A stretch of 64,000 nt of DNA from positions 18,078 through 82,077 of the forward strand of contig JANOVM010000057.1 of assembly GCA_031417395.1 (NCBI GenBank). Direction: 5' to 3'. Source of the stretch: Bacteroidota bacterium (GTDB taxonomy: Bacteria; Bacteroidota; Bacteroidia; AKYH767-A; 2013-40CM-41-45). Below the pieces are notes generated by a model. It was not told where the DNA came from, did no database searches, and worked only from the letters and a program-made list of their open reading frames with translations. A program made the position numbers and the translations under genes. Positions 2,431 through 34,278 of this stretch are shown here, piece after piece (position 1 is the first letter of the stretch; every line of letters starts with the position of its first letter).

Positions 2431-3002
2431 GAGAAGTTCAGGGCCTTCCGATCCTGAATGATTTTTATCTTGTTGGAGGTACGGCACTCGCTTTGCGGTA
2501 TGGGCATCGAATTTCTGTTGATCTGGATTTTTTTACTGAGAAAGAATTTGATACGAGTTCTCTGATTGATACACTCAAAGAGAAGTTTTCTGTTCGTGTT
2601 TTGTCGCAAGCCAAAAACTCATTGACATTGGATCTTCGCTCTGTCAAAACGGATTTCATCAGACATAATTATCCCATATTAAAACCATTCGTAAAAGCAG
2701 ATGAAATTAAAATGGCTTCCGTTGAAGATATAGCAGCCATGAAACTCAATAGTACCATGAACCGCGGTGCCAAAAAGGATTTTTATGATATTTATGAATT
2801 GCTGAATCATTTCACATTACAGGAGCTGATTACTTTTTATAATTCCAAATATGATTTTTCCTCTCAACTGATCGTACTTAAAAGTCTGGTTTATTTCGAC
2901 GACGCTGAACAGGAACCGGACCCTGTTACAGTTAAGCCGGTATCATGGAGTTTGGTAAAGCAAAGGATTTCGGAGGAAGTAGGTTTATTCGCAAGAAATT
3001 AA
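2385..3002 (+). CDS. AbiEii/MenT-like nucleotidyltransferase (toxin of a type IV/VII TA or abortive-infection module)
   Basis: The N-terminal motif LVGGTALALRYGHRISVDLDFF is the GG-TAL...R.S.DLD nucleotidyltransferase signature of the AbiEii/DUF1814 family. The upstream frame is closed by a stop at 2370-2372, so the ATG at 2385 is the start. Confidence 0.65.
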   Translation: MLFFSAVSPEALELLREVQGLPILNDFYLVGGTALALRYGHRISVDLDFFTEKEFDTSSLIDTLKEKFSVRVLSQAKNSLTLDLRSVKTDFIRHNYPILKPFVKADEIKMASVEDIAAMKLNSTMNRGAKKDFYDIYELLNHFTLQELITFYNSKYDFSSQLIVLKSLVYFDDAEQEPDPVTVKPVSWSLVKQRISEEVGLFARN

Positions 3003-6000
3003 TAAAAGACTGTAACAGAACCAAGATAAACATGTGTTTTCCCAAAAACGTCTGTCACCTTTGCTCTCCAAACATAAACATCCTGTTGTACAGGATTGCC
3101 GTTGATGGTTCCATTCCACTGACAAGAAGAGGACATTCCTTCATTGCCATAGGTATCGTAAGGAACATTAGAACCTTCCTCGTGACATGACCAGATTTTC
3201 AATCCCCAACGATCATAAATCCAGAAGTCGTAATTTTTAATACCCATTCCTTTAGCGTAAAAGAGATTGTTTTCGGAATCTCCATTTGGTGTGAATGCAT
3301 TAGGAACAAAGAAGGTGAAGTTTGGATTGATTTCATTAGGTTTAACAATGGTGTCTTTACATCCATACTCTGTGGTTACGATTAGTGTAGTGTAAAATTT
3401 GTAAAAGTCGTTTCCTGATGCTGATGAATAGAAATGCTTTTCAACAGGACCGCCATGTACAATACTTGAACTATCACCAAAATCCCATGTCCAATGAACA
3501 ACATTAGAAGAAGACTGATCCAGGAATGTAAGCGTCGGCGGATAATTTCCGGCTAAATCAGTGCTTATGCTAAAATCTGCAACAGGGTTTGAATAGACTT
3601 TAATAATATTATCAAAATATTTATAAGCGGAACAACCTAAATCGTTAACAACAGTAATCGATGCATCATAATACCCGGGAGTGTTGTAACAGACCTCGTC
3701 GGGATTTTGAGAAAAAGAAATACTCGGACTTCCACCCGGGAAATTCCATCCCCATTGAACAATGGAGCCATCTGCAGAAGTTGAAAGATCAATAAACGTA
3801 TGACAAAAAGGAATACAGCCGGTATCCGGACTATTAATCTGAATTTCGGGAAGCTTATAGACTGTAGCTGTTCCGTTGGAAGTATCTCTACAGCCTTTTT
3901 GTGTCTCTGCAATTAATGTTATTGGGAATGTACCTGTCGTGTCAAAACGGATAATAGGATTTTCTAATTGCGAAGAATCAGGTTGCCCATAAGGAACAGA
4001 CCAATGATAATCTAATCTGGCCCCATTACTAACGGATGATTGATTAACCAGGGTAACGGTACTGTTTTTACAAAGTGTTGGAGAAACAAATGAAGATAAT
4101 GGTAATGGGAAAACATTAAGTGTAAATGCTGCTGTATCAACACAACCTCCGTTAGCACTGGCAATAAGATTAACGGTATAGGACCCGGGAGTAGAAAATG
4201 TAACAACAGGATTTGCTGCAGTAGAGGAAGTCATAGAACCACCGGGAATAATCCATGAATAGGTAATGTTTGCACCGGCAGGTTGAACGGAAGAATTATT
4301 CGAAAAGATTATTTCCGAACCGGCGCATATATCCGGTAAGGAGAAATCAGCATGAGGATTAGCTGAAACAATAACTTGTTTTGCAATCGTGTCAGAACAA
4401 CCGTGGATGGTTGTTGTGATTAACTCCACAAGAGATGTGTCAACAGTTTGAAATGTAATCACCGGATGTGTTTGCGAAGAGGCAGCAGGAACAGCGTTTT
4501 CAAAATTCCATGCATAGGTTGCAAGAGTATCTCCCGGGAAGGCAGTAGATAAATTAGTAATACTATATGGCGTGCCCGCACAGTTTATCGGCGCATTAAA
4601 ATCAGCTTGAGGTAAAGGATAAATGGAAATAACTTTATCAATGGTGTCTTTACATCCGCCTGTTGATGATGCAATTAATTGTATGGTTGAATTACCGGGA
4701 TTCGCATAGCTTACTGCGGGTGTCACCATAGCGGAACTGGAAGGGTTACCGCCGGTAAACGACCAGGAATAAGATAATGGACCTCCGGAAGGAGAAAGTG
4801 TTGATGTATTCGCTAAAGAAAGTTGTTCGCCGAAACAAAAAGATTGAGCCGAGAAGGAGGCAACAGGTGTTTCAAAAATATTTATTGTTTGCTGAACGGT
4901 ATCAGGGCAGCCATTGGCAGTGTTAACAATAAGTGTAATTTGTGACGAGCCGGAATTTGAAAAGGTTACAACCGGATTTATCGCTGAAGAAGCAGCGGGA
5001 TTTCCACCGGCAATATTCCAGGAGTAAGAACTGATTGTATCACCCACGCCAATCGTTGAAGTATTGGTAATGGTCAACGGATAATCTGTACAAACATTTG
5101 GAGCGGTAAAAGAAGCAGCGGGATTCTGCGGCACATTAAAGGTATATTGTATCGTATCGATGCAGCCGGGCGAATAGGTGCCGGAAATTAACGTGACGGA
5201 ATGAGTTCCCGAAGGAAAGATTATTGAATCAGGGTTTGATACATTCGATGTTGCAGGAGAACCGCCGTTGAAATTCCATTGCCAGTATTTAATCGGATCC
5301 TGTGGCGTAGGCGAAATACATTGAGAAGTGAAATCAACATAACCGCAATGCGTTGTATATATATAATTAGCAGACACTGAAAAATGTTGCGGAACATAAC
5401 GTGCCGACCAATTGCATCCGGAAGGTAAAGAAACTTTCACGGTAAACGTATCTCCCGGTTGTGCATAAGAAGTAACGGTTTGTGTAGTGGCAAACGGAAT
5501 CGTATCCTTATTGAGAAACCATTCATAGGAATAACTATTAATTAAATCAGGTGATGAGGGAGCAACCAATGTATCAGGAGCATTTGTATAACAGTTCGGT
5601 TTTAAAATTACTGATGATGATCCGCATGCAAAATCCCAGTAGGAATGAGCAAAATGTCCGCCTAAACGACAATCAGCATTGGTAATAACAACAGTTAAAG
5701 TTTGTCCGATATAGTTAGACAAATTAACGCCTTCAATTGTCCAGGGCTTATAAATAGCAGTGTCGCGCATAAAGCCGCCGCCGCCTCCACCTCCACCGCC
5801 ACCACCAGTACGGGCACGGTTACATGTATATTGACCGGGGAATGATTCACTGGCTATGTAACGCTGATATGCACAGGGAATGGTATCTCCATTCGGATCG
5901 AGAATCATAAACTCAACATAGGGCATGTTATCAATCGTATGTGTTGAATCGCCCGGATTTTCCATCACAAATGCATAAGAGTAGATAAAATTTGTATCAG

Positions 6001-6628
6001 CTGCCCCAACTGTAAAACAATATGTCAATCGCTCTGCACAACCGGCGGCAAATGGATTAATTGGTAAGGAACAACCACCACCCTGTCCATCGGTCATAGG
6101 TTGTCCAAGTTGGATCGAACTCATACCAAAACCGGGAGGTGCAACAAGTGTAATAGGCGGATCTCCCGGTTTCACGCCCGGAGTCAATGGATCTATTCCC
6201 GGGCCGGTGGTAATATTAAATCTGATTGGAGCCGGAACTGCAGATGTCAAAATTAATCCAAGTGAATCATAATTTTTACCTTCTTCAGCCTGCCAAACAT
6301 CCCAACCATTTTCAGCACCCATATTGTAACAAGTACCACATGCAGAGGAGGATGATTGCCTCGAATAAGAGTGTACGGATAATTTTCTGCCTTGCTGAAT
6401 AATTAATTCATTTTGAGTGCGGATTGCATCCAAAGTTGCAGCGGGAATTTTGTTTGATTTGATTTGGTCCGAAACAGATGGCTTTTCTTTGAAAAAGACT
6501 GCTGCGTCTTTTGATTTATCCCGAATGTTTTGTGCGGCAGAATTAAAAGAATAAATGAATAGAAAAGCCATTATGAAAACAGCAATTCGTTTTGAAAATA
6601 AATAATAGGCAATACGTGTGGAATTCAT
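2999..6628 (-). CDS. large cell-surface protein with multiple PKD-like repeats and a gliding-motility-associated C-terminal domain (CHU_C / T9SS type B CTD)
   Basis: Signal/TM at the N-terminus. Repeated ~85-aa units of the type ...FSNNSS...YSW...GG...NPVVTFS..G.YTV.L (PKD-like). An 11-Gly tract. The C-terminus FFVPNAFTPNGDSENNLFYAKGMGIKNYDFWIYDRWGLKIW...YVWRAKVTD matches the CHU_C domain. Confidence 0.8.
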   Translation of the reverse strand: MNSTRIAYYLFSKRIAVFIMAFLFIYSFNSAAQNIRDKSKDAAVFFKEKPSVSDQIKSNKIPAATLDAIRTQNELIIQQGRKLSVHSYSRQSSSSACGTCYNMGAENGWDVWQAEEGKNYDSLGLILTSAVPAPIRFNITTGPGIDPLTPGVKPGDPPITLVAPPGFGMSSIQLGQPMTDGQGGGCSLPINPFAAGCAERLTYCFTVGAADTNFIYSYAFVMENPGDSTHTIDNMPYVEFMILDPNGDTIPCAYQRYIASESFPGQYTCNRARTGGGGGGGGGGGFMRDTAIYKPWTIEGVNLSNYIGQTLTVVITNADCRLGGHFAHSYWDFACGSSSVILKPNCYTNAPDTLVAPSSPDLINSYSYEWFLNKDTIPFATTQTVTSYAQPGDTFTVKVSLPSGCNWSARYVPQHFSVSANYIYTTHCGYVDFTSQCISPTPQDPIKYWQWNFNGGSPATSNVSNPDSIIFPSGTHSVTLISGTYSPGCIDTIQYTFNVPQNPAASFTAPNVCTDYPLTITNTSTIGVGDTISSYSWNIAGGNPAASSAINPVVTFSNSGSSQITLIVNTANGCPDTVQQTINIFETPVASFSAQSFCFGEQLSLANTSTLSPSGGPLSYSWSFTGGNPSSSAMVTPAVSYANPGNSTIQLIASSTGGCKDTIDKVISIYPLPQADFNAPINCAGTPYSITNLSTAFPGDTLATYAWNFENAVPAASSQTHPVITFQTVDTSLVELITTTIHGCSDTIAKQVIVSANPHADFSLPDICAGSEIIFSNNSSVQPAGANITYSWIIPGGSMTSSTAANPVVTFSTPGSYTVNLIASANGGCVDTAAFTLNVFPLPLSSFVSPTLCKNSTVTLVNQSSVSNGARLDYHWSVPYGQPDSSQLENPIIRFDTTGTFPITLIAETQKGCRDTSNGTATVYKLPEIQINSPDTGCIPFCHTFIDLSTSADGSIVQWGWNFPGGSPSISFSQNPDEVCYNTPGYYDASITVVNDLGCSAYKYFDNIIKVYSNPVADFSISTDLAGNYPPTLTFLDQSSSNVVHWTWDFGDSSSIVHGGPVEKHFYSSASGNDFYKFYTTLIVTTEYGCKDTIVKPNEINPNFTFFVPNAFTPNGDSENNLFYAKGMGIKNYDFWIYDRWGLKIWSCHEEGSNVPYDTYGNEGMSSSCQWNGTINGNPVQQDVYVWRAKVTDVFGKTHVYLGSVTVFY

Positions 6629-7648: not shown

Positions 7649-8263
7649 TTATTTCAATCGAATTCCTACTCCAAATTCTAAAGATAGATTTGCCAGGTTC
7701 CCATCGACGGAATTAATGTCTGAGCTTTTAAAAGGATAAGGGTATAGAGGCAAATACATTCTATAGCTGAAAAAGTACTTCTTCGTTCCAACTTTAATAT
7801 TATACATTAATCCCAAGTCAGGACTAGAAGAACTTACAACTACTGACACTTTTTCAAATTCGGGATTGTTTAATGTTTCTTTGAAGGTATCGTATTTTAT
7901 TCCTGCAATAAGGGAAAATGTGTGAGAAGTGTGTTTCCCGGAAAAAGAAGTTCCAATCCCGAATTTTTGACTTAATGAATAATCGTAGTTTGTTTTAATG
8001 TAATTAAAATCTCTGAGAAAGGCATTGTTGTATGAAAAGGAAGTATGCGAAACAATGCTAAGACGTTTAAGAATATTCCATTGCGTAAGGTTGCTCAAAA
8101 GCAAAGCCGGCATGGGATATAATTTTATCCCGATTCCCATTTCAATTGTTAATTGACGATCCGTGATATTCTTCCTGGAAATTTTAGAAGAATCCAATTG
8201 ACCATAAGCAAATGAAAAATTTAAAAGCAATAAAGTGATAGATAAGGTTTGTATGAGTTTCAT
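7649..8263 (-). CDS. putative outer-membrane beta-barrel protein
   Basis: Signal peptide MKLIQTLSITLLLLNFSFAYGQ. Alternating hydrophobic beta-strand-like segments. The C-terminus has aromatic/hydrophobic residues (GVGIRLK) as in porin-like OMPs. Confidence 0.45.
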   Translation of the reverse strand: MKLIQTLSITLLLLNFSFAYGQLDSSKISRKNITDRQLTIEMGIGIKLYPMPALLLSNLTQWNILKRLSIVSHTSFSYNNAFLRDFNYIKTNYDYSLSQKFGIGTSFSGKHTSHTFSLIAGIKYDTFKETLNNPEFEKVSVVVSSSSPDLGLMYNIKVGTKKYFFSYRMYLPLYPYPFKSSDINSVDGNLANLSLEFGVGIRLK

Positions 8264-8307: not shown

Positions 8308-9099
8308 TTATCTGTTTTCGAAATAAAAAGTTAAACCATCAACTATGTTTGGGTTCCGGGATCCCATATGGTCAAGATGTGGTTGGAGGTGACTGGTAAT
8401 TTTAATGTCAGGATAATTGTTTTGTAAACGTTGATGAAATGCTTCATAAGGAGCCGGCATTCTTCCACTATTCTCCAGTCCGCCCAAACCCATGAATACC
8501 AATTGATGATTATTCATGTTGATATTCCTGTTTTCTTTTTCGAATCGAAGCATTATTTCATTGTCATACCATATCGAAGGACTTAACATAAGGTAATTGC
8601 CGAATACATCATTGAAATTTGTAAAGGCGTAAGCAGCAAGCAAACCACCAAATGAATGTCCTAGAATAGTTCTGTTTTTTCGTAACGTGTCAGCCCCAAA
8701 GTCATTCTCTATTTTAGGTATTAATTCGTATTTCACAAACTGCATAAACTTTTCTGCACCTCCGCCGCCTTCACCGGTATTGGAAGGTGTGTAATCTATA
8801 GCTCTGTCATTTCCGTAACCAATACTAACTACCAGAACATTTGAAGTTGAATAATTACTGCAAATCTCTTTGCAATTATTTGTAACAAAGTTGAAATTCT
8901 CCTCCCCATCTAAAACATATACAGTTGCATATTTCTGAATGGAGGAATCGTAATTGTCAGGCAAAGCAATTTTAATTTTATAGTTTGCATTTGTTGAAGT
9001 TGATTGGATTGAAAACTCCTTTATCAGGCCGGGGTTTACATCTTCTTTTTTACAAGAAGTTATTAATATGATTAAAAATATTGGAAGTAGTTTTTTCAT
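8308..9099 (-). CDS. alpha/beta-hydrolase esterase (putative esterase family)
   Basis: Lipoprotein signal (IILITSCKK). GHSFGG nucleophile elbow (GxSxG), with a downstream His (HLDHMGS) and an acidic residue (SPSIWYD) consistent with a Ser-His-Asp triad. Confidence 0.7.
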   Translation of the reverse strand: MKKLLPIFLIILITSCKKEDVNPGLIKEFSIQSTSTNANYKIKIALPDNYDSSIQKYATVYVLDGEENFNFVTNNCKEICSNYSTSNVLVVSIGYGNDRAIDYTPSNTGEGGGGAEKFMQFVKYELIPKIENDFGADTLRKNRTILGHSFGGLLAAYAFTNFNDVFGNYLMLSPSIWYDNEIMLRFEKENRNINMNNHQLVFMGLGGLENSGRMPAPYEAFHQRLQNNYPDIKITSHLQPHLDHMGSRNPNIVDGLTFYFENR

Positions 9100-9145: not shown

Positions 9146-9212
9146 ACAAATGTATATCCTTCATCACATGCCATTATTATATTACTTTGGGAAAGGATTA
9201 TAGAATTTTGGG
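9146..9212 (-). promoter_or_regulatory. promoter plus candidate operator upstream of the esterase gene (copy A of a duplicated bipartite element)
   Basis: In gene sense this reads CCCAAAATTCTATAATCCTTTCCCAAAGTAATATAA - 21 nt - ATACATTTGT. The distal 10-mer contains a TAnnTTTG -7 box. The 36-bp block is 34/36 identical to a second copy at 10898-10933, and both copies share the same 21-nt spacing to the 10-mer. Confidence 0.5.
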
Positions 9213-9282: not shown

Positions 9283-10608
9283 TTAATGGTGATTCGTATG
9301 CATCATTTCTTTTTCTTCGTAGGACAAAGTGGGATCAATGAGGTCAAAGTTTGCCATCATACCGGCAGCGTGGTGTTCAAGAATATGGCAATGATACATC
9401 CAGGTTCCTGTGCGGTTATCCGGCATCCACGCTATTTTTATCTTGCTCCTTGGCGTTAAATTATAGGTGTCTTTCCACGCTCTGAATTCCGGAGCTTTGC
9501 CATTCTCTTCTAATACCTGGAAAAAGAAGCCATGGAGATGAAATGGGTGATCCATCATACTAACGTTTGAAATTTCCCATATCTGTAATTCTTCGATGTT
9601 TACCGGTTTATCATTGACATGCATGTTGTCATTAACCAGGAAATTCATTCCGTTCTTCAGACTGGGTCCGACAGAAAATTTTATCTTTCTTGTAGCAACA
9701 GCATTCTTCGAAGCAAGGGGTTTGATTTTCCTAAGAGTTTCAGGAATGAAGGCTACGGAAGGTTTGTTTTCTCCTACCTGAACCGTTGCAAATTTTTCCC
9801 GTTTTGCTTTGAGAAAAGTTACACGGTTATAGGGAAGAGATTCTATAGCAAAAGTCTCACCTGCTGTAAAGGGACCAACAGTGATATCTATCCGTTCACC
9901 GGGAGTAATCAATACTTCCGTAACAGTACGCGGATGTTCTAAGAGTCCGCCGTCAGTGCCGATTATTTTAAACTCTTTGCCCTCCAGATGTAGAAGAAAA
10001 TAGCGGGCACTTGATGAATTTATGAAACGCCATCTTTCGGTTTGGGAACCATTCACATTGACTATAGTATTTTCTTTTCCATTTAATAGTAGGGTATTGC
10101 CTTGTCGGCCATCGTGCCTTTCTACGACTCTTGGAATAAACCAACCGGGTTTTGTAAATTCATTGACAATGTTGAGTTTCATGTCATCAATCATAAAAAT
10201 TCTTTCGCCATCTGTAACAACATCCGTTTCGTCTTCGACAATCAAAGCGCCATACATACCTCTTTCCATCTGAACGGTTTCATTGGCATGTGAATGGTAC
10301 CAGAATGTACCTGCATCAGGAACAACAAAACGGTATTCAAAGGTTTCGCCGGGAGCAACAGGTTTCTGAACGCCGTCTGTTCCATCCATTGCTGCAGGAA
10401 GGCATATGCCATGCCAGTGAATGGTTGTTGGCTCATTCAGGTTATTCGTTAACCGGACAATAAGTGTATCGCCCACGTTTGCTCTTAATACAGGGCCGGG
10501 AAGCTGTTTGTTAAATCCCCAGGCTTCAACGGTTTTTCCCGGAGCAATTTCCCAATTAAAAGCACTTGCTTCAAAATTGTATTCTACTATTTTTGATTCG
10601 GATTTCAT
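9283..10608 (-). CDS. multicopper oxidase (laccase/CueO/CopA-like)
   Basis: Four copper-binding motifs are present: HWHG, WYHSH, HPFHLHG and HCHILEHHAAGMMANF. It has the three-cupredoxin-domain size of 441 aa. Confidence 0.9.
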   Translation of the reverse strand: MKSESKIVEYNFEASAFNWEIAPGKTVEAWGFNKQLPGPVLRANVGDTLIVRLTNNLNEPTTIHWHGICLPAAMDGTDGVQKPVAPGETFEYRFVVPDAGTFWYHSHANETVQMERGMYGALIVEDETDVVTDGERIFMIDDMKLNIVNEFTKPGWFIPRVVERHDGRQGNTLLLNGKENTIVNVNGSQTERWRFINSSSARYFLLHLEGKEFKIIGTDGGLLEHPRTVTEVLITPGERIDITVGPFTAGETFAIESLPYNRVTFLKAKREKFATVQVGENKPSVAFIPETLRKIKPLASKNAVATRKIKFSVGPSLKNGMNFLVNDNMHVNDKPVNIEELQIWEISNVSMMDHPFHLHGFFFQVLEENGKAPEFRAWKDTYNLTPRSKIKIAWMPDNRTGTWMYHCHILEHHAAGMMANFDLIDPTLSYEEKEMMHTNHH

Positions 10609-10681
10609 GATGATTAATTTTATTTTAGTTTTTATAGATTATTTTTCGTTAAAAAAGTCGCCCGGAGTGGGCGGCTTTGAA

Positions 10682-10798
10682 TTAGCAATTGCAGGAATTA
10701 CTGCAGTTACATTTTTCACATTTGCAAGATGTACCGCAAGTGCAGTTTTCACAGACACAAGGTTGACATGTGCATTTTGAATTGGCAGAATTTTTCAT
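10682..10798 (-). CDS. small cysteine-rich metallothionein-like peptide (38 aa, 12 Cys)
   Basis: Hand translation of the minus strand gives MKNSANSKCTCQPCVCENCTCGTSCKCEKCNCSNSCNC*, six regularly spaced CxC pairs. It lies between the HMA-AraC regulator and the multicopper oxidase on the same strand. It is below the 60-aa cutoff of the ORF track. Confidence 0.5.
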   Translation of the reverse strand: MKNSANSKCTCQPCVCENCTCGTSCKCEKCNCSNSCNC

Positions 10799-10866
10799 AC
10801 TGCTTTGAGCACCTTGGCTCTTTTTTAAGTTTGTTTTCATGACTTTTTTGAATTAAAATTTACACT

Positions 10867-10933
10867 ACAAATGTATGGCAAGCATGCACCGTGAGCGTTA
10901 TATTACTTTGGGAATGAATTATAGAATTTTGGG
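10867..10933 (-). promoter_or_regulatory. promoter plus candidate operator upstream of the Cys-rich peptide / multicopper oxidase unit (copy B)
   Basis: In gene sense this reads CCCAAAATTCTATAATTCATTCCCAAAGTAATATAA - 21 nt - ATACATTTGT (TAnnTTTG -7 box). It is near-identical to copy A at 9146-9212. Confidence 0.5.
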
Positions 10934-11032
10934 TTTCCTTAAAAGGAAGGTTTATTGCCTTTTATAAGCAAAAGCATTCCACCCGGATAATAGGCGAATA
11001 GTTAATAAAAAGGAAACAGACTAAATGAGCGG

Positions 11033-11608
11033 TTATACTTTATCAAGCGCTTTACGCTTTACCGTCCCAACTTTTTTAAAGTAAGAGGGTGTAAGTCCGG
11101 TGATTTTCTTGAATTGACTGGAAAGATGCGCTGTACTGCTATAATCAAGTTCAAAAGCAATTTCAGAGAGAGTCTTTTCTCCATAAATGAGTAACTCTTT
11201 AGCTTTTTCAATTCTTTGTTCAATATAAAAATTTTCTATAGTTCTTCCTTCGACTGATGAGAATAAACTGCTAAGATGTGTGTACTCATAATGCAGTTTT
11301 TCAGAAAGGTAGTTTGAAAGGTTTATTTTTTTTTCTTTAGAATCAACTTCGAACCGGGCTTTCTTAATTGCAAGCTGTTTGATTTTTTCAATCAGTCCGC
11401 TCATATGACTGTCGATTAATTCAAAGCCAATACCATTAAGATTTCTTGAAAGGGCAGTTTTCTGTTTTTCATTTAATTCATCCATTAAATGAATCTCACT
11501 AAAAAGAACTTTTTGAAAAGGGATCTTTTCTCTGTTTAGGATTTCTTCTACGGCCAGAACACAGCGATGACAAACCATATTTTTTACAAGTACAATATGT
11601 GAGGTCAT
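11033..11608 (-). CDS. AraC-family transcriptional regulator with an N-terminal HMA-like metal-binding domain
   Basis: The N-terminus IVLVKNMVCHRCVLAVEEIL has an MxCxxC motif in a beta-alpha-beta-beta-alpha-beta-like segment, as in the heavy-metal-associated fold. The C-terminus ...LSEIAFELDYSSTAHLSSQFKKITGLTPSYFKK is an AraC-type HTH. Confidence 0.7.
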   Translation of the reverse strand: MTSHIVLVKNMVCHRCVLAVEEILNREKIPFQKVLFSEIHLMDELNEKQKTALSRNLNGIGFELIDSHMSGLIEKIKQLAIKKARFEVDSKEKKINLSNYLSEKLHYEYTHLSSLFSSVEGRTIENFYIEQRIEKAKELLIYGEKTLSEIAFELDYSSTAHLSSQFKKITGLTPSYFKKVGTVKRKALDKV

Positions 11609-22083: not shown

Positions 22084-23628
22084 TTAATTAATGTTACATT
22101 CTTTATCCAGCACTTGTACAGTCCTTATATAAAATTCATGAGCTTCTTCCACTGTTTTGCCAATGCAAACAACTCCTAGTTTTCCATATTGTGACAATGC
22201 ACCAATCATGTGAAACATTACGCCGGTTTGTTTCGAACTATCGTATAGAATGTGATTGCAGATGGCAATGTCGATTAAATCTTGCGGTGTAAGTCCAATA
22301 TATTTTTCATTCACTAAATTATCTGAAGCAAAATAGCAGCGCTTTTCTCCGTTGGACATTTTATAAATTCCTTCCTTCCAGTTAAAATCGCCATCCGTTA
22401 AAAACTTAAGCATAATAAAAGGATGTGTAGTGCCGCCTTTTCGTAAATTAATTTCAATAGCATAATGTTTCCAGCCTACCGGTTGTTTAACCGATAAAAA
22501 GTCAATACTGAACCTGCCTAATACACCTAAGCGTTGCATTTCAAAGGAAATGGCTTGAGCCATCATTGCAATTTCTGTATTATATCTTATGTTGGCCGGA
22601 AAAGTAGCTCCAAGAAAGACTTGTCCGCTTTCGCCGCCCAGCAGTTGATCGTGTGTCGATATAATTTCAGGTTCGCCAAGCGGATTTATCCTGCATTGCA
22701 CGGAAGGTGATTCTTTGTATTCGCCTTCGATAAACTCTTCTACAATGCCACCCATGCTGGTAAACTTTTCAATAAATATCTCATAGCTTAATTGATTTGC
22801 GATAATTAATAAGTTACCGGGTAATTTTTTTAGAATTTCAGCAGCTAAATTATTTTGTGATCCGTCAACGATAGAATAATTAAATATGGCATTTCCTTCT
22901 CCGGAAAATCCGTCATTCATCTTTACAACTGCTTTGCGCAATATTGGATTGTTTATTTTTAATTGTGCCAGGGCAAGAGCGATATCGTTTTCGTTTTGCA
23001 GCGATTCAAAACCGACCGCTAATGGAATGTTTAATCTTTTAAATATTTCACGACTTCCTTTTTTTGTACCCAGATATAAAAGTTTGGGGTCGCACCCAAA
23101 AATTGGAATATTCAAAGCAAGCGAAAGTTGTTTTTCGTATTCAGTAACATTGAAAGAAGCCATGTGAGCCAGTTGGGGAAATTTAATGGCTTGTCTAATT
23201 CTTTTGATTAAGCGCGGACGTTCAAGAATTTTTTCGGTAAGGGATCTGGAAGATGCATCGTAGCAGCTCAAAATCGTTAACCGCTGGCGTGCATGATAAC
23301 CGGTTATGCCGGGCAATAGATGAAGGTAATAATCGATAATGCTGTTGTCTATCGGCACACTGGTAATGTAAATAACCTGCGTTCGAGGCATACGCAATAA
23401 CATAAGCATGCATAGCATTCTTTCTTCATAATGAAAAACACCTTTTATGGATTTTATAATTTCCTGGTCAAGCGTAAGGCTGGGAATAATAACTACTGTT
23501 TTTTCAGCCATGTCATCCAAAAAGATTTCATAGAAATGTTTTTTAAATCTTTCCTGAAGTAAATCAAAAGCTGAATTAGCCTGACTGAAATGATAATGAG
23601 TCATAGGAGTCGTATTAATTGTATCCAT
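22084..23628 (-). CDS. ATP-grasp superfamily protein, PGM1-like peptide ligase architecture (pre-ATP-grasp plus ATP-grasp)
   Basis: The N-terminal region VVIIPSLTLDQEII...HYEER resembles the pre-ATP-grasp domain of PGM1-type ligases. The central Gly-rich ATP-grasp-like stretch is VVKMNDGFSGEGNAIF...IEEFIEGE. Confidence 0.45.
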   Translation of the reverse strand: MDTINTTPMTHYHFSQANSAFDLLQERFKKHFYEIFLDDMAEKTVVIIPSLTLDQEIIKSIKGVFHYEERMLCMLMLLRMPRTQVIYITSVPIDNSIIDYYLHLLPGITGYHARQRLTILSCYDASSRSLTEKILERPRLIKRIRQAIKFPQLAHMASFNVTEYEKQLSLALNIPIFGCDPKLLYLGTKKGSREIFKRLNIPLAVGFESLQNENDIALALAQLKINNPILRKAVVKMNDGFSGEGNAIFNYSIVDGSQNNLAAEILKKLPGNLLIIANQLSYEIFIEKFTSMGGIVEEFIEGEYKESPSVQCRINPLGEPEIISTHDQLLGGESGQVFLGATFPANIRYNTEIAMMAQAISFEMQRLGVLGRFSIDFLSVKQPVGWKHYAIEINLRKGGTTHPFIMLKFLTDGDFNWKEGIYKMSNGEKRCYFASDNLVNEKYIGLTPQDLIDIAICNHILYDSSKQTGVMFHMIGALSQYGKLGVVCIGKTVEEAHEFYIRTVQVLDKECNIN

Positions 23629-32187: not shown

Positions 32188-34278
32188 ATGAAAAAAATAA
32201 CTAGTATGAAATTTGTAATTTCTGCAGTATTGTTTGGAGGAATTCTCTTTGGATTAATTGCTACAAACATTATTGATTTAACCGCTTCAAGCCATAGGGA
32301 AGCACCACTAATTGCTAATGATCCTTTGGCTGATAATACCGATTTATATGCATTTCGTAATCCCAACGATACCAATAAAATTGTAATTATTGCGAATTAT
32401 GTGCCGGCTGAATTACCACAGGGCGGACCCAATTATTATTCTTTCGGCGAAAATGTAAGGTATGAAGTCCATGTTAAAAATGGTCATTCCAAGAAAATGA
32501 ATGAAGACGACATCGTTTATCGTTTCACTTTCAAGCAGGTAAACGAAGATCCAACCACTTTTTTTAACATTCGATTGGGCAAACAAAACCTGAAGACGAC
32601 CTATACCTGTGAACGGAGTATGAATGGAGGAAAGTCATTTCAAACAATTGCAACCAATGGAATAGTTCCTCCTAATAACATTGGTCCTCGTTCAATTGAC
32701 GGACCTGTTGGTTTAAACACGCCTTATGCTACTTTACGCACCAATGCACTTAAGCAAGCTTCAACGGGAGAACAAATTTTCTGTGGACCTTCTGATGATC
32801 CTTTCTTTGTGGATTTAGGCGGTATATTTGATTTAGGTCAATCAAGAGACGGTGGTACAGGCGTGGATAGTCCACGCGATGCTCTGGCATGTAAAAACGT
32901 TCACTCCATTTGTTTGAATATTCCAATTTCCACCTTGCAAAAGGATGGTAAAAATGTTACCATGGCTCAGAATATTTTGGATAAAGATTATATTATAGGA
33001 GTTTGGGCAAGTGCAAGCAGACAAAAGATCACCATGCTCGACGACAATGGTGGATCCCCAAAAACTTCAGGAAAATGGATTCAGGTATCAAGAATTGGAA
33101 TGCCTTTAACAAATGAAGTTGTTATTCCAATTGGAGACAAAGATTATTGGAATGCACAAACACCATACAATGAAGTCGCTTTTGAAAAATACTTTATGAA
33201 TCCGGAGCTTGCTTTATACATGGACAACAGTCAGTTTGGTGGAGCAGTACCTGCATTTAGTTCATTGAGAATTCAAACCAACTCATTGCAGGCCTTTGAT
33301 TTTAGGAATACTAAAAACGGATTATTCTCATTGTTAGGTTCACCTGCAGTTACAAATACTGCATTGGATCCTTCAATCTTCGGAAATTATTTACTTAGAG
33401 CTAATAATCCGCGTTCGGTAGATATTCTCCCAATTTTTATGATGGGCGTTCCAAACCTTCCTCCATATCAATTGGCCACAGGAAAAAATGGAAATCCTTT
33501 AGCGGCCGGAAAACCTTTTATTAATAATTTTCTTCCTACCAATGGTGACATGTTGCGGTTGAATATGGCCGTACCGGTAACAGACAGAAATGATCCAAAT
33601 TTTAACTCGCTGGGATTAATATATGCAGCTGTTCTTGGACTAACCGATCCAGCTTACAATCAAAATGCAAGTTTGCAATTTATTCCTAACATGGATGGAT
33701 TTCCGAATGGCAGAAGACTTGAAGATGATGTAACGAGAATTGAGCTGCAGGCTGTGAGCGGCGCAGTACTTGCAGCGATTGGATTATGGTATGATGATTA
33801 TACAGCAGGTGGTCCTAACCCTGTTACACCGGCACTTCTGGGAGTATTGGGTTATAAAACCGGTGTGGAAGAAAACGATACAGCGTTTCAAACACAATTT
33901 CCTTACGTACAAACTCCGTGGAATGGTTACAGTGGGTGCAAGTGTGGTCCGACAGGTTATTACAAGATGGCAAGTACTATTGCACCGATGAATCTTGGAT
34001 TAAATTTAGGAACTCCCGTGAGTGTGATGATGAATTATCCTAATCCCGCTTCTGATAAAACAACCTTTAAAGTGAAACTTATGGAAAATGCAAAGGTCTC
34101 CATTAAGATTTATGATATCAATGGACGAATTATTGCTACACCTTTAAATGAAAATAAAACAGAAGGAACATTTGAAGTACCTGTTGACTTGTCAGATTTT
34201 AATGCAGGAGTATATTTTGCAATATTGTCGAACAATGAACAAACTGTACAGACAGTAAAATTTTTAGTATCTAAATAG
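32188..34278 (+). CDS. secreted DUF4331-like protein with T9SS C-terminal domain
   Basis: The mature N-terminus ASSHREAPLIANDPLADNTDLYAFRNPND...IIANYVP.E.P.GGPNYY is the characteristic start of DUF4331-family proteins, as I recall it. The C-terminus NYPNPASDKTTFKV...GVYFAILSNN is a T9SS CTD. Confidence 0.55.
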   Translation: MKKITSMKFVISAVLFGGILFGLIATNIIDLTASSHREAPLIANDPLADNTDLYAFRNPNDTNKIVIIANYVPAELPQGGPNYYSFGENVRYEVHVKNGHSKKMNEDDIVYRFTFKQVNEDPTTFFNIRLGKQNLKTTYTCERSMNGGKSFQTIATNGIVPPNNIGPRSIDGPVGLNTPYATLRTNALKQASTGEQIFCGPSDDPFFVDLGGIFDLGQSRDGGTGVDSPRDALACKNVHSICLNIPISTLQKDGKNVTMAQNILDKDYIIGVWASASRQKITMLDDNGGSPKTSGKWIQVSRIGMPLTNEVVIPIGDKDYWNAQTPYNEVAFEKYFMNPELALYMDNSQFGGAVPAFSSLRIQTNSLQAFDFRNTKNGLFSLLGSPAVTNTALDPSIFGNYLLRANNPRSVDILPIFMMGVPNLPPYQLATGKNGNPLAAGKPFINNFLPTNGDMLRLNMAVPVTDRNDPNFNSLGLIYAAVLGLTDPAYNQNASLQFIPNMDGFPNGRRLEDDVTRIELQAVSGAVLAAIGLWYDDYTAGGPNPVTPALLGVLGYKTGVEENDTAFQTQFPYVQTPWNGYSGCKCGPTGYYKMASTIAPMNLGLNLGTPVSVMMNYPNPASDKTTFKVKLMENAKVSIKIYDINGRIIATPLNENKTEGTFEVPVDLSDFNAGVYFAILSNNEQTVQTVKFLVSK

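Follow-up and report, generated by a model that had tools for sequence, protein, structure and literature searches.

A candidate metallothionein-like peptide family and its putative HMA-AraC metal sensor in Bacteroidota

Introduction

Metallothioneins (MTs) are considered rare in Bacteria, and those treated in a 2020 review (PMC7558416) and in a 2026 survey are essentially SmtA/BmtA and MymT. SmtA, of the SmtA/BmtA type (PF02069; MT family 14), is a small, cytoplasmic, metal-induced, cysteine (Cys)-rich protein with a zinc-finger-like core, two His ligands, aromatic residues, and Zn4 as its metal complement, and it is under repression by the ArsR-type SmtB. MymT, which offers the best functional analogy among Bacteria to the peptide described below (PMC7558416), is a Cu-linked cytoplasmic thionein of 53 amino acids (aa) that contains His and charged residues, is confined to actinobacteria, began as an unannotated open reading frame (ORF), and is served by a dedicated copper sensor, the CsoR-family RicR, through derepression. 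Outside Bacteria, the closest described systems are the fungal Cu(I)-MTs of Neurospora crassa and Agaricus bisporus (MT family 8), with 25-26 aa and 7 Cys that bind 6 Cu(I) under the control of a Cu-fist/ACE1-type factor, and the vertebrate MT beta-domain (residues 1-30 of human MT2A), with 9 Cys that form an M(II)3 or Cu(I)6 cluster. Here, a small Cys-rich gene is examined in a 64,000-nucleotide (nt) stretch of a Bacteroidota genome (assembly GCA_031417395.1, contig JANOVM010000057.1, positions 18,078 to 82,077), referred to throughout as the window. The gene lies next to that of an AraC-type regulator, and the best reading of the sequence comparisons is that the two likely represent a new bacterial metallothionein-like family paired with a new type of metal-sensing regulator.

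Known bacterial copper sensors include CueR (of the MerR type), CsoR, CopY, CusRS/CopRS, and ComR. Cytoplasmic copper sensing in Bacteroidota is poorly described, as far as a literature search showed. Searches of the literature, with subscription-only papers outside their scope, found no description of a Bacteroidota metallothionein of the type reported here, nor of any metal sensor built by fusing a heavy-metal-associated (HMA) domain to an AraC domain.

Extent of the small gene

The gene under study is the following.

Positions 10682 to 10840, minus strand: Cys-rich small ORF encoding a putative metallothionein-like peptide of 52 aa plus the stop codon, MKTNLKKSQGAQSSMKNSANSKCTCQPCVCENCTCGTSCKCEKCNCSNSCNC

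An earlier note on this DNA had drawn attention to a 38-aa ORF at positions 10682-10798. Translation of the minus strand there gives MKNSANSKCTCQPCVCENCTCGTSCKCEKCNCSNSCNC followed by a stop codon, with 12 Cys arranged in six CxC pairs, exactly as that note described. Its judgment that such regularity is unlikely to arise by chance is likewise upheld: the real Cys and CxC density lies above that of all 200 first-order Markov versions of the 64-kb window (36.5% G+C), in which the maxima were 8 Cys and 4 CxC, and when all 986 segments of the window that run for 30 aa or more without a stop codon, in any of the six frames, are compared, the runner-up has 7 Cys per 38 aa and no more than three CxC. 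The stop and the frame of the ORF stand as first given; its start does not. The frame remains open upstream to an ATG at 10840, which yields a 52-aa product beginning MKTNLKKSQGAQSSMKNSANSK / MKTNLKKSQGAQSSMKNSANSKCTC. The Met chosen previously is most likely the internal Met15 (codon at 10798), because homologues share the N-terminal "MK...SQ.AQ" stretch of the 52-aa form and because the distance from the operator described below to the ATG at 10840 is 93 nt, within the range of 88-105 nt seen in 63 aligned loci of the family, versus 135 nt for the other Met. The true start is thus most likely the ATG at 10840. So delimited, the peptide has a hydrophilic N-terminal part of about 22 residues and then a core of 30 residues that carries the 12 Cys in CxC and CxxC spacing.

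The placement of this ORF between the gene of an AraC-type regulator (11033-11608, minus strand) and that of a three-domain multicopper oxidase (MCO; 9283-10608, minus strand) is as originally described. The overlapping plus-strand ORF at 10421-10780 also exists; it has no match in Pfam and runs antisense to both conserved genes.

Conservation and coding potential

Because searches with the peptide itself nearly failed, related loci were gathered through the regulator protein and their DNA was then scanned. These loci are the best 80 of 271 stretches that encode regulator relatives (62-94% identity) in species-representative genomes. All 80 belong to Bacteroidota and include Chitinophagaceae, Saprospiraceae, Ferruginibacter, Flavobacterium, and related groups. 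The metagenome-assembled genomes concerned derive from activated sludge and freshwater, and cultured strains that carry the gene include Ferruginibacter paludis CECT 8366, Flavobacterium soyangense CGMCC 1.13493, and Confluentibacter lentus HJM-3. Scanning in all six frames recovered a Cys-rich small ORF in 67 of the 80 loci, and a strict operator-anchored count, for which an ORF had to begin with ATG 80-115 nt past the operator and to encode at least 6 Cys and at least three CxC, yielded 69 copies in 66 of the 80. The copies span 37-75 aa and contain 7-13 Cys, with a mode of 8. When the window is included, the ORF begins within a few hundred nt of the regulator stop codon and on the same strand in 63 of 81 loci, mostly after a gap of 93-132 nt.

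An alignment of the copies places a variable hydrophilic N-terminus ("MKSTT..SQS.QNVK") before a core of the form C-x-C-x2-C-x-C-x2/3-C-x-C in which the Cys residues are in register. Two shapes of peptide can be distinguished, namely a short form (with KCSNPNCTCVNCNCGSTCTCANCK) and long forms, the peptide of the window among the latter. Six core columns are Cys in all 63 aligned sequences and seven are 98-100% Cys, while the codons in these columns switch freely between the two Cys codons (for example, TGC in 25 sequences and TGT in 38). Column entropies at codon positions 1, 2, and 3 are 0.83, 0.96, and 1.31, respectively. The ratio of non-synonymous to synonymous substitution rates (dN/dS; Nei-Gojobori) between the window and its closest relative, L001, is 0.10 (7 synonymous and 4 non-synonymous changes), and for many other pairs it is 0.1-0.5. 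Residues other than Cys are also conserved and under purifying selection, among them N, G, and T and the motif "NPNCTC". The in-register Cys core, the free switching of Cys codons, the entropy pattern, and the low dN/dS together indicate that purifying selection acts on the protein product of the ORF. The earlier note had named a lack of reading-frame conservation in relatives as the observation that would overturn its proposal; the frame is instead conserved, Cys codons switch synonymously, and dN/dS is well below 1. The ORF is almost certainly a real protein-coding gene on this comparative evidence. The competing idea of a chance open frame or non-coding RNA, suggested by the shortness of the ORF in AT-rich and ORF-rich DNA and by its absence from the protein collection, is effectively refuted by the randomizations and by the conservation of frame and Cys columns across families.

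Several loci carry more than one copy. Two peptide genes, each with its own operator, occur in L011, L033, and L037, and a second copy lies further downstream in L027 and L030. Such tandem duplication recalls the amplification of CUP1/MT copy number under metal selection. Variants or apparent frameshifts were noted at L015, L021, L023, L039, L053, and L065: the copies of L015 (about 4673-4830) and L053 (about 5435-5640, minus strand) look frameshifted or degraded, and those of L021 and L023 have a Cys-to-Tyr/Phe substitution. In L070 (4653-4880), the stop codon is lost and a 75-aa product results, which is present in databases as P0017. The odd copies in L015, L053, L021, L023, and L070 could be pseudogenes or assembly errors in metagenome-assembled genomes. 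In the window and L001, 196 nt separate the regulator and peptide genes, a spacer that exceeds those of other loci by about 100 nt.

Promoter, operator, and terminator

The signals that surround the peptide gene in the window are listed below.

Positions 10919 to 10933, minus strand: operator half-site 1 (CCCAAAATTCTATAA), the promoter-distal copy of a direct repeat
Positions 10898 to 10912, minus strand: operator half-site 2 (CCCAAAGTAATATAA), 21 nt (two helical turns) from half-site 1
Positions 10868 to 10875, minus strand: -7 promoter element TAnnTTTG (TACATTTG), 22 nt downstream of the operator
Positions 10651 to 10675, minus strand: intrinsic-terminator-like hairpin (CGCCC-ACTCC-GGGCG) followed by a T6 run, starting 7 nt past the peptide stop codon

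The promoter/operator copy that had been placed about 70 bp upstream of the 38-aa ORF is real and comprises the -7 box at 10868-10875 and the direct repeat at 10898-10933. The motif TAnnTTTG is the Bacteroidetes sigma-A -7 motif. Across the family, the operator is a direct repeat with a 21-nt period and the consensus CCCAAAATTnTrTAA-N6-CCCAAAGTnnTrTAA; its first half, CCCAAAATTnTrTAA, is conserved in all 63 aligned loci, and the operator as a whole is present in 78 of the 80. The spacer from the repeat to the -7 box is exactly 22 nt in nearly every locus, and the box is followed by an A-rich leader of about 27 nt and then by ATGAAA. The half-site pattern matches the window six times versus 1.4 times expected, a count reached in none of 100 shuffles. 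Two of these matches, at 23074-23088 and 32993-33007 (both minus strand), stand alone with no partner repeat 21 nt away and were set aside as probable chance occurrences. A -33 TTTG is not evident at the window promoter; the place expected for the -33 element directly adjoins half-site 2, the promoter-proximal repeat, on the downstream side of that repeat. This geometry is what an activator-dependent promoter would be expected to show.

By a strict rule, a hairpin followed by a T-run lies 3' of the ORF in 49 of 63 loci, and one can be recognized by eye in most of the remainder. The window hairpin is weak, at about -9.7 kcal/mol versus -15 in L001. Judged from this arrangement of promoter, short A-rich leader, ORF, and terminator, the peptide gene forms a small transcription unit of its own. 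A further terminator-like hairpin, at 10978-10998 (minus strand), lies past the end of the regulator gene and suggests separate transcripts for regulator and peptide.

The regulator and its links to copper

The gene upstream of the peptide encodes the protein described in the line below.

Positions 11033 to 11608, minus strand: regulator of 191 aa with an HMA-like N-terminus (residues about 1-66) and an AraC/XylS DNA-binding domain

Databases label this protein only as an "AraC family transcriptional regulator," and a protein 100% identical to it is present in the protein collection; its relatives form at least 7,863 clusters at E<=1e-20, some of which may be generic AraC matches. The C-terminus matches the Pfam models HTH_18 (PF12833; 3.8e-18) and PF00165 (3.1e-9). 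The N-terminus carries an invariant K9-N-M-V-C13-H-R-C16 (KNMVCHRC) in all 49 orthologues, which contains an M-x-C-x-x-C loop, and when a profile of this region was searched against PDB sequences, 16 of 17 matches were HMA domains (ATP7B at 8.6e-4, ATP7A, CopZ, and ZntA). An AlphaFold2 (AF2) model, run on the database protein, has a pLDDT of 88 and predicts a beta-alpha-beta-beta-alpha-beta order in the N-domain (strands at residues 4-9, 31-35, and 38-41, helices at 14-26 and 47-59) with C13 and C16 in the beta1-alpha1 loop. With Foldseek, the N-domain retrieved the metallochaperones CopZ (2qif; probability 0.99) and Atx1 (2xmv) (TM 0.63-0.67, probability 0.98-0.99), which it resembles both in fold and in the M-x-C-x-x-C loop, and the C-domain superposed on the activators SoxS, MarA, and Rob (TM about 0.75 normalized to the target). 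On the profile search and the predicted fold, the regulator is a fusion of an HMA domain with an AraC DNA-binding domain.

Distant relatives of the regulator, 39-46% identical over the full length, are found on plasmids of Cytophagia and Sphingobacteriia. In Mucilaginibacter robiniae, the gene order is copA, an HMA protein, a hypothetical protein, AraC, an MCO, three DUF305 proteins, and a Csp-like four-helix bundle. Two Hymenobacter plasmids have copA, a cupredoxin, and AraC in that order. A relative adjoins a copper-translocating ATPase in Bernardetia and the SO_0444 Cu/Zn efflux transporter in Aureibacter. The relatives found in copper clusters are those of L081, L083, L084, L086, and L087. 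In L083 (M. robiniae plasmid NZ_CP051683, 3811-3846), an operator of the same architecture stands upstream of copA, with two repeats 21 nt apart followed after 22 nt by TACTTTTG. The plasmid copA products of L081 and L083 (Hymenobacter oligotrophus and Mucilaginibacter, respectively) contain CPC, YN(x)4P, and M(x)2SS motifs, which mark Cu(I) pumps. Because relatives sit in copper loci and the operator architecture precedes a plasmid copA with these motifs, the regulator is a probable copper, or at least soft-metal, sensor. In one homologue, encoded at L082 6989-7549 on the Runella rosea plasmid NZ_CP030852, the metal loop has lost its first Cys (FMVSLRC). No metal genes adjoin the gene of this homologue, which may be a sensor that has degenerated or been repurposed.

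Comparison with known metallothioneins

Metallothioneins are operationally recognized by low molecular mass (below about 10 kDa), a Cys content of about 15-30% arranged as CxC and CxxC, few or no aromatic residues, the lack of a stable apo fold, the binding of several metal ions per molecule in thiolate clusters, and induction by metal. The window peptide, with a mass below this bound, contains 12 Cys in 52 residues (23%) and no F, W, Y, or H, and AF2 predicts no autonomous fold for the peptide (pLDDT 53). The operator of an HMA-domain regulator in front of the gene is an indirect pointer to metal induction. Among 45 members of the family, matches were found to five Pfam families, and the strongest, though weak, were to three metallothionein families: PF12749 (Metallothio_Euk) in 2 of 45 members (best E 7.6e-4), PF02068 (PEC) in 2 of 45, and PF01439 (Metallothio_2) in 1 of 45. 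The other two families, Ribosomal_S5 and ATP_synth_reg, were matched by single members at E values of 0.14-0.16. The metallothionein-like character proposed in the earlier note is the reading best supported by the Cys content, the lack of aromatic residues and His, the weak matches to metallothionein families, the alignment of the Cys pattern with Neurospora Cu-MT and the vertebrate beta-domain, and the CopZ-like regulator.

For pairwise comparison by BLASTP, hand-typed reference sequences of the Neurospora MT, human MT2A, SmtA, and MymT were used. The resemblance to fungal Cu(I)-MT lies in the small size, the lack of aromatic residues and His, the exclusive use of CxC and CxxC spacings, and the richness in Asn, Gly, and Ser. 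When a short-form member was compared with N. crassa MT in a single comparison, all seven fungal Cys aligned (E 6e-5) along the pattern C-x-C ... C-N-C-G-S-x-C-x-C-x-N-C. The N. crassa spacing, CxC-x5-CxC-x3-CxC-x2-C, and that of the short forms, CxC-x2-CxC-x3-CxC-x2-C plus one Cys, differ by one 3-residue gap, in sequences that are both short and biased in composition. The bacterial peptides differ from fungal MT in having a Cys-free N-terminus of 15-22 residues, an extra N-terminal Cys, and a first spacer of 2 rather than 5 residues; the window version has 12 Cys versus 7, shows no profile-level membership of the fungal family, and belongs to a family that would be controlled by an HMA-AraC activator rather than by a Cu-fist/ACE1-type factor. 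The resemblance may reflect common descent or convergence alike.

The impression, recorded in the earlier note, that the CxC-only design approaches eukaryotic beta-domains agrees with the comparison to vertebrate MT, in which CTCGTSCKCEKCNC of the window and CTCAGSCKCKECKC of human MT2A are identical at 7 of 13 positions of the BLASTP segment (E 0.005). In addition, the "NPNCTC" of the short forms resembles the "DPNCSC" of the vertebrate beta-domain. The window peptide is unlike vertebrate MT in that it has no alpha-domain, no match to PF00131, a bacterial host, and a different mode of regulation.

Among bacterial systems, the likeness to SmtA extends to being bacterial, small, and Cys-rich, and probably to a cytoplasmic location and metal induction. 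The SmtA N-terminus, MTSTTLVKCACEPCLC, resembles the MKSTT...VKC...CTCxNCNC of the family and the KCTCQPCVC of the window, and in a single comparison with SmtA, 7 of 16 residues are identical (E 5e-4) with the N-terminal KCxCxxCxC shared. The Bacteroidota peptides lack the zinc-finger-like core and the His ligands of SmtA, and neither the window peptide nor any of the 45 members matches PF02069 at E<=10. With MymT, the peptide has in common its small size, its history as an unannotated ORF, the probable link to copper, the predicted cytoplasmic location, and a dedicated putative sensor; it has no significant sequence similarity to MymT (E 0.19, 6 of 31 residues identical), and its promoter would be activator-driven rather than derepressed.

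Several observations weigh against a metallothionein-like role under copper control. The window peptide has no match in Pfam or NCBIfam and reaches no curated metallothionein threshold, and 0 of 45 members match any of the 18,950 NCBIfam models at E<=10. Likeness among Cys-rich, low-complexity peptides can be convergent. The Pfam HMA model (PF00403) gives no match to the regulator at E<=1, and since this model is silent, the HMA assignment rests on the profile search against PDB and on the predicted fold. The Cys-rich peptide was not found in the plasmid copper clusters of the distant regulator relatives, and most neighbors of the module (DJ-1/PfpI-AraC, esterase, DUF6010) are non-metal genes. 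Lastly, the CxxC site of HMA domains also binds Zn, Cd, and Hg and may act as a redox switch, which is why copper specificity is favored only moderately. With these points taken into account, the peptide is still quite probably a cytoplasmic metal-sequestering thionein under the HMA-AraC regulator, and copper, probably as Cu(I) in thiolate clusters, is somewhat favored as its main metal.

Alternative explanations and genomic context

An alternative to metal sequestration is that the thiols of the peptide scavenge or buffer oxidants or electrophiles such as reactive carbonyls, chlorine, or sulfide. The regulator CxxC would then be a switch that responds to redox state or electrophiles; regulatory disulfides can form at CxxC motifs. 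This would suit the preponderance of non-metal neighbors and the fact that DJ-1/PfpI, a glyoxalase/deglycase-type protein linked to electrophile stress, is the commonest downstream neighbor (18 of 76 loci; 16 of these 18 neighbors also carry an AraC HTH). A 391-aa DJ-1/PfpI membrane protein is moreover directly operator-driven in L050 and L064 (4669-5844). The regulator CxxC, however, belongs to an HMA fold and forms part of a metal loop of the classic M-x-C-x-x-C type, the same operator drives MCOs (it is directly upstream of the MCO in L050 and L064) and, in a distant relative, copA, regulator relatives occur in copper clusters, and CxC/CxxC motifs spaced this regularly are what one typically sees in thioneins that form clusters, not in simple thiol donors. 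A scavenging role is therefore considered unlikely. Given the recurrence of DJ-1/PfpI, the module may be connected with thiol or electrophile stress or, alternatively, with Cu-binding DJ-1-like proteins.

A second alternative casts the peptide as a dedicated metallochaperone that donates Cu to, or accepts it from, the MCO and other cuproproteins. The oxidase next to the peptide is as follows.

Positions 9283 to 10608, minus strand: three-domain multicopper oxidase, CueO-like, 441 aa, matching Pfam Cu-oxidase_3/2/1

This protein matches the NCBIfam CueO model at 2e-63, a score under the family cut-off. Its gene starts 74 nt past the peptide stop codon, behind the weak terminator, and it has no operator of its own; this combination makes partial read-through into the oxidase gene plausible and suggests that oxidase and peptide may be co-expressed in the window. 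The oxidase begins MKSESKIVEYNFEASAFNW; 11 codons before its ATG there is an in-frame stop. It carries no Sec/TAT signal peptide, so that both partners in such a transfer would be cytoplasmic. A cytoplasmic three-domain MCO would be unusual. The oxidase ends in a His-rich tail (MMHTNHH). The peptide-oxidase association that the earlier note proposed to check is not borne out across the family: an MCO is near the peptide in only about 20 of 80 loci, and about 60 of 80 have the peptide with no MCO within 4 kb, whereas the regulator and the operator are nearly constant, and on these grounds the oxidase was rejected as the primary partner. What follows the peptide gene varies (DJ-1/PfpI-AraC, esterase, DUF6010, and many more), and at least 10 loci have a gene of the opposite strand there; because these neighbors are not conserved, the constant module consists of regulator, operator, and peptide gene. 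The range of 7-13 Cys and the tandem duplications also fit capacity-driven sequestration better than a specific partner, and a chaperone role is quite unlikely.

Third, the ORF could encode the precursor of a modified or disulfide-rich secreted peptide, such as a bacteriocin-like ribosomally synthesized and post-translationally modified peptide, with residues 1-22 as a leader. The order of a hydrophilic N-terminus and a Cys-rich core superficially resembles thioether or sactipeptide precursors. Hydropathy of residues 1-22 (mean Kyte-Doolittle -1.4) shows no signal peptide, and AF2 predicts no stable apo fold for the peptide (pLDDT 53, pTM 0.21, no secondary structure) and no confident disulfide-knot fold. 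The 25 Pfam families that occur most often in 76 downstream and 78 upstream neighbors include no radical-SAM, LanB/C/M, YcaO, peptidase, or ABC exporter family, and the sole constant partner is a regulator of the metal-sensor type, all of which make a secreted or modified product very unlikely.

Finally, the order of promoter, short Cys-rich ORF, terminator, and downstream gene would also be that of an attenuator in which a Cys-rich leader peptide senses Cys-tRNA or cysteine supply and controls terminator read-through. This has a slightly smaller chance still of being correct, given that the downstream gene varies and may be convergent, that non-Cys residues are conserved as well, that the gap from the stop codon to the hairpin ranges from 7 to 45 nt with no evident alternative anti-terminator, and that the promoter has an activator site of its own.

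The preferred reading, a metal-sequestering thionein controlled by the HMA-AraC regulator, extends to a candidate regulon in the window that includes three further features.

Positions 9147 to 9212, minus strand: second operator copy with -7 box (repeats at 9198-9212 and 9177-9191, -7 box at 9147-9154)
Positions 8308 to 9099, minus strand: esterase-like lipoprotein, 263 aa (Pfam Esterase PF00756, 8e-20), behind the second operator
Positions 7649 to 8263, minus strand: 204-aa protein with a signal peptide and of no known family, downstream of the esterase

The second operator copy and the one in front of the peptide gene share a nearly identical 43-nt block. The esterase-like lipoprotein is a putative member of the same regulon. 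In L001, L033, L062, and L073, too, the esterase is driven by the operator. The pair of genes for the 263-aa and 204-aa proteins follows the peptide gene in many related loci and recurs in L002-L008, L012, L014, L027, L030, and L073. Elsewhere in the window, positions 2999-6628 (minus strand) encode an unrelated 1209-aa PKD-repeat-like surface protein with a run of 11 Gly.

Annotation of the peptide in databases

The window peptide is absent from the protein collection, and a word-indexed homology search with the single peptide returned no match. A phmmer search of 1.84 billion representatives returned one true match, a mis-called 89-aa ORF; an ankyrin-like match in the same search was judged spurious, and the only match of phmmer against PDB, to an activin receptor, was attributed to chance. 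An exact look-up of 10 family peptides found 2, both unnamed. A profile built from the 45 members recovered 25 proteins in 5.8 billion, all of them unnamed or "hypothetical." The database entries P0003 (89 aa), P0019 (60 aa), and P0013 (67 aa) have spurious N-terminal extensions through the promoter region. Gene callers miss or mis-call the peptide gene, and the loss from annotation is systematic: entries for the regulator number in the thousands, versus these 25 peptides.

Proposed mechanism and implications

Metal binding by the peptide, its metal specificity, activation rather than repression by the regulator, and read-through into the oxidase gene are inferred, and the mechanism they suggest is as follows. 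Metal would bind to the HMA domain of the regulator, possibly bridging two protomers, whereupon the regulator would occupy the two repeats spaced by 21 nt that replace the -33 element and would recruit RNA polymerase. The peptide would then accumulate and buffer the metal, and this buffering would also take away the inducing signal and so provide negative feedback. In the window, leaky termination would co-express the downstream MCO, and the second operator copy would co-induce the esterase-like lipoprotein operon.

The regulator is a candidate metal sensor whose architecture is new, and its operator is so sharply defined that the regulon would be predictable from sequence. The small, portable module would be attractive for copper biosensors and bioremediation. 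There is about an even chance that the peptides form a phylum-specific Cu(I)-thionein family of Chitinophagales, Saprospiraceae, and Flavobacteriales that, together with the HMA-AraC copper sensor, makes up a two-gene sense-and-sequester module, with a core either convergent with or anciently related to that of fungal Cu-MT and the vertebrate beta-domain. With at least 66 species-level genomes among the best 80 loci, the Bacteroidota peptides are a candidate third family of bacterial metallothioneins.

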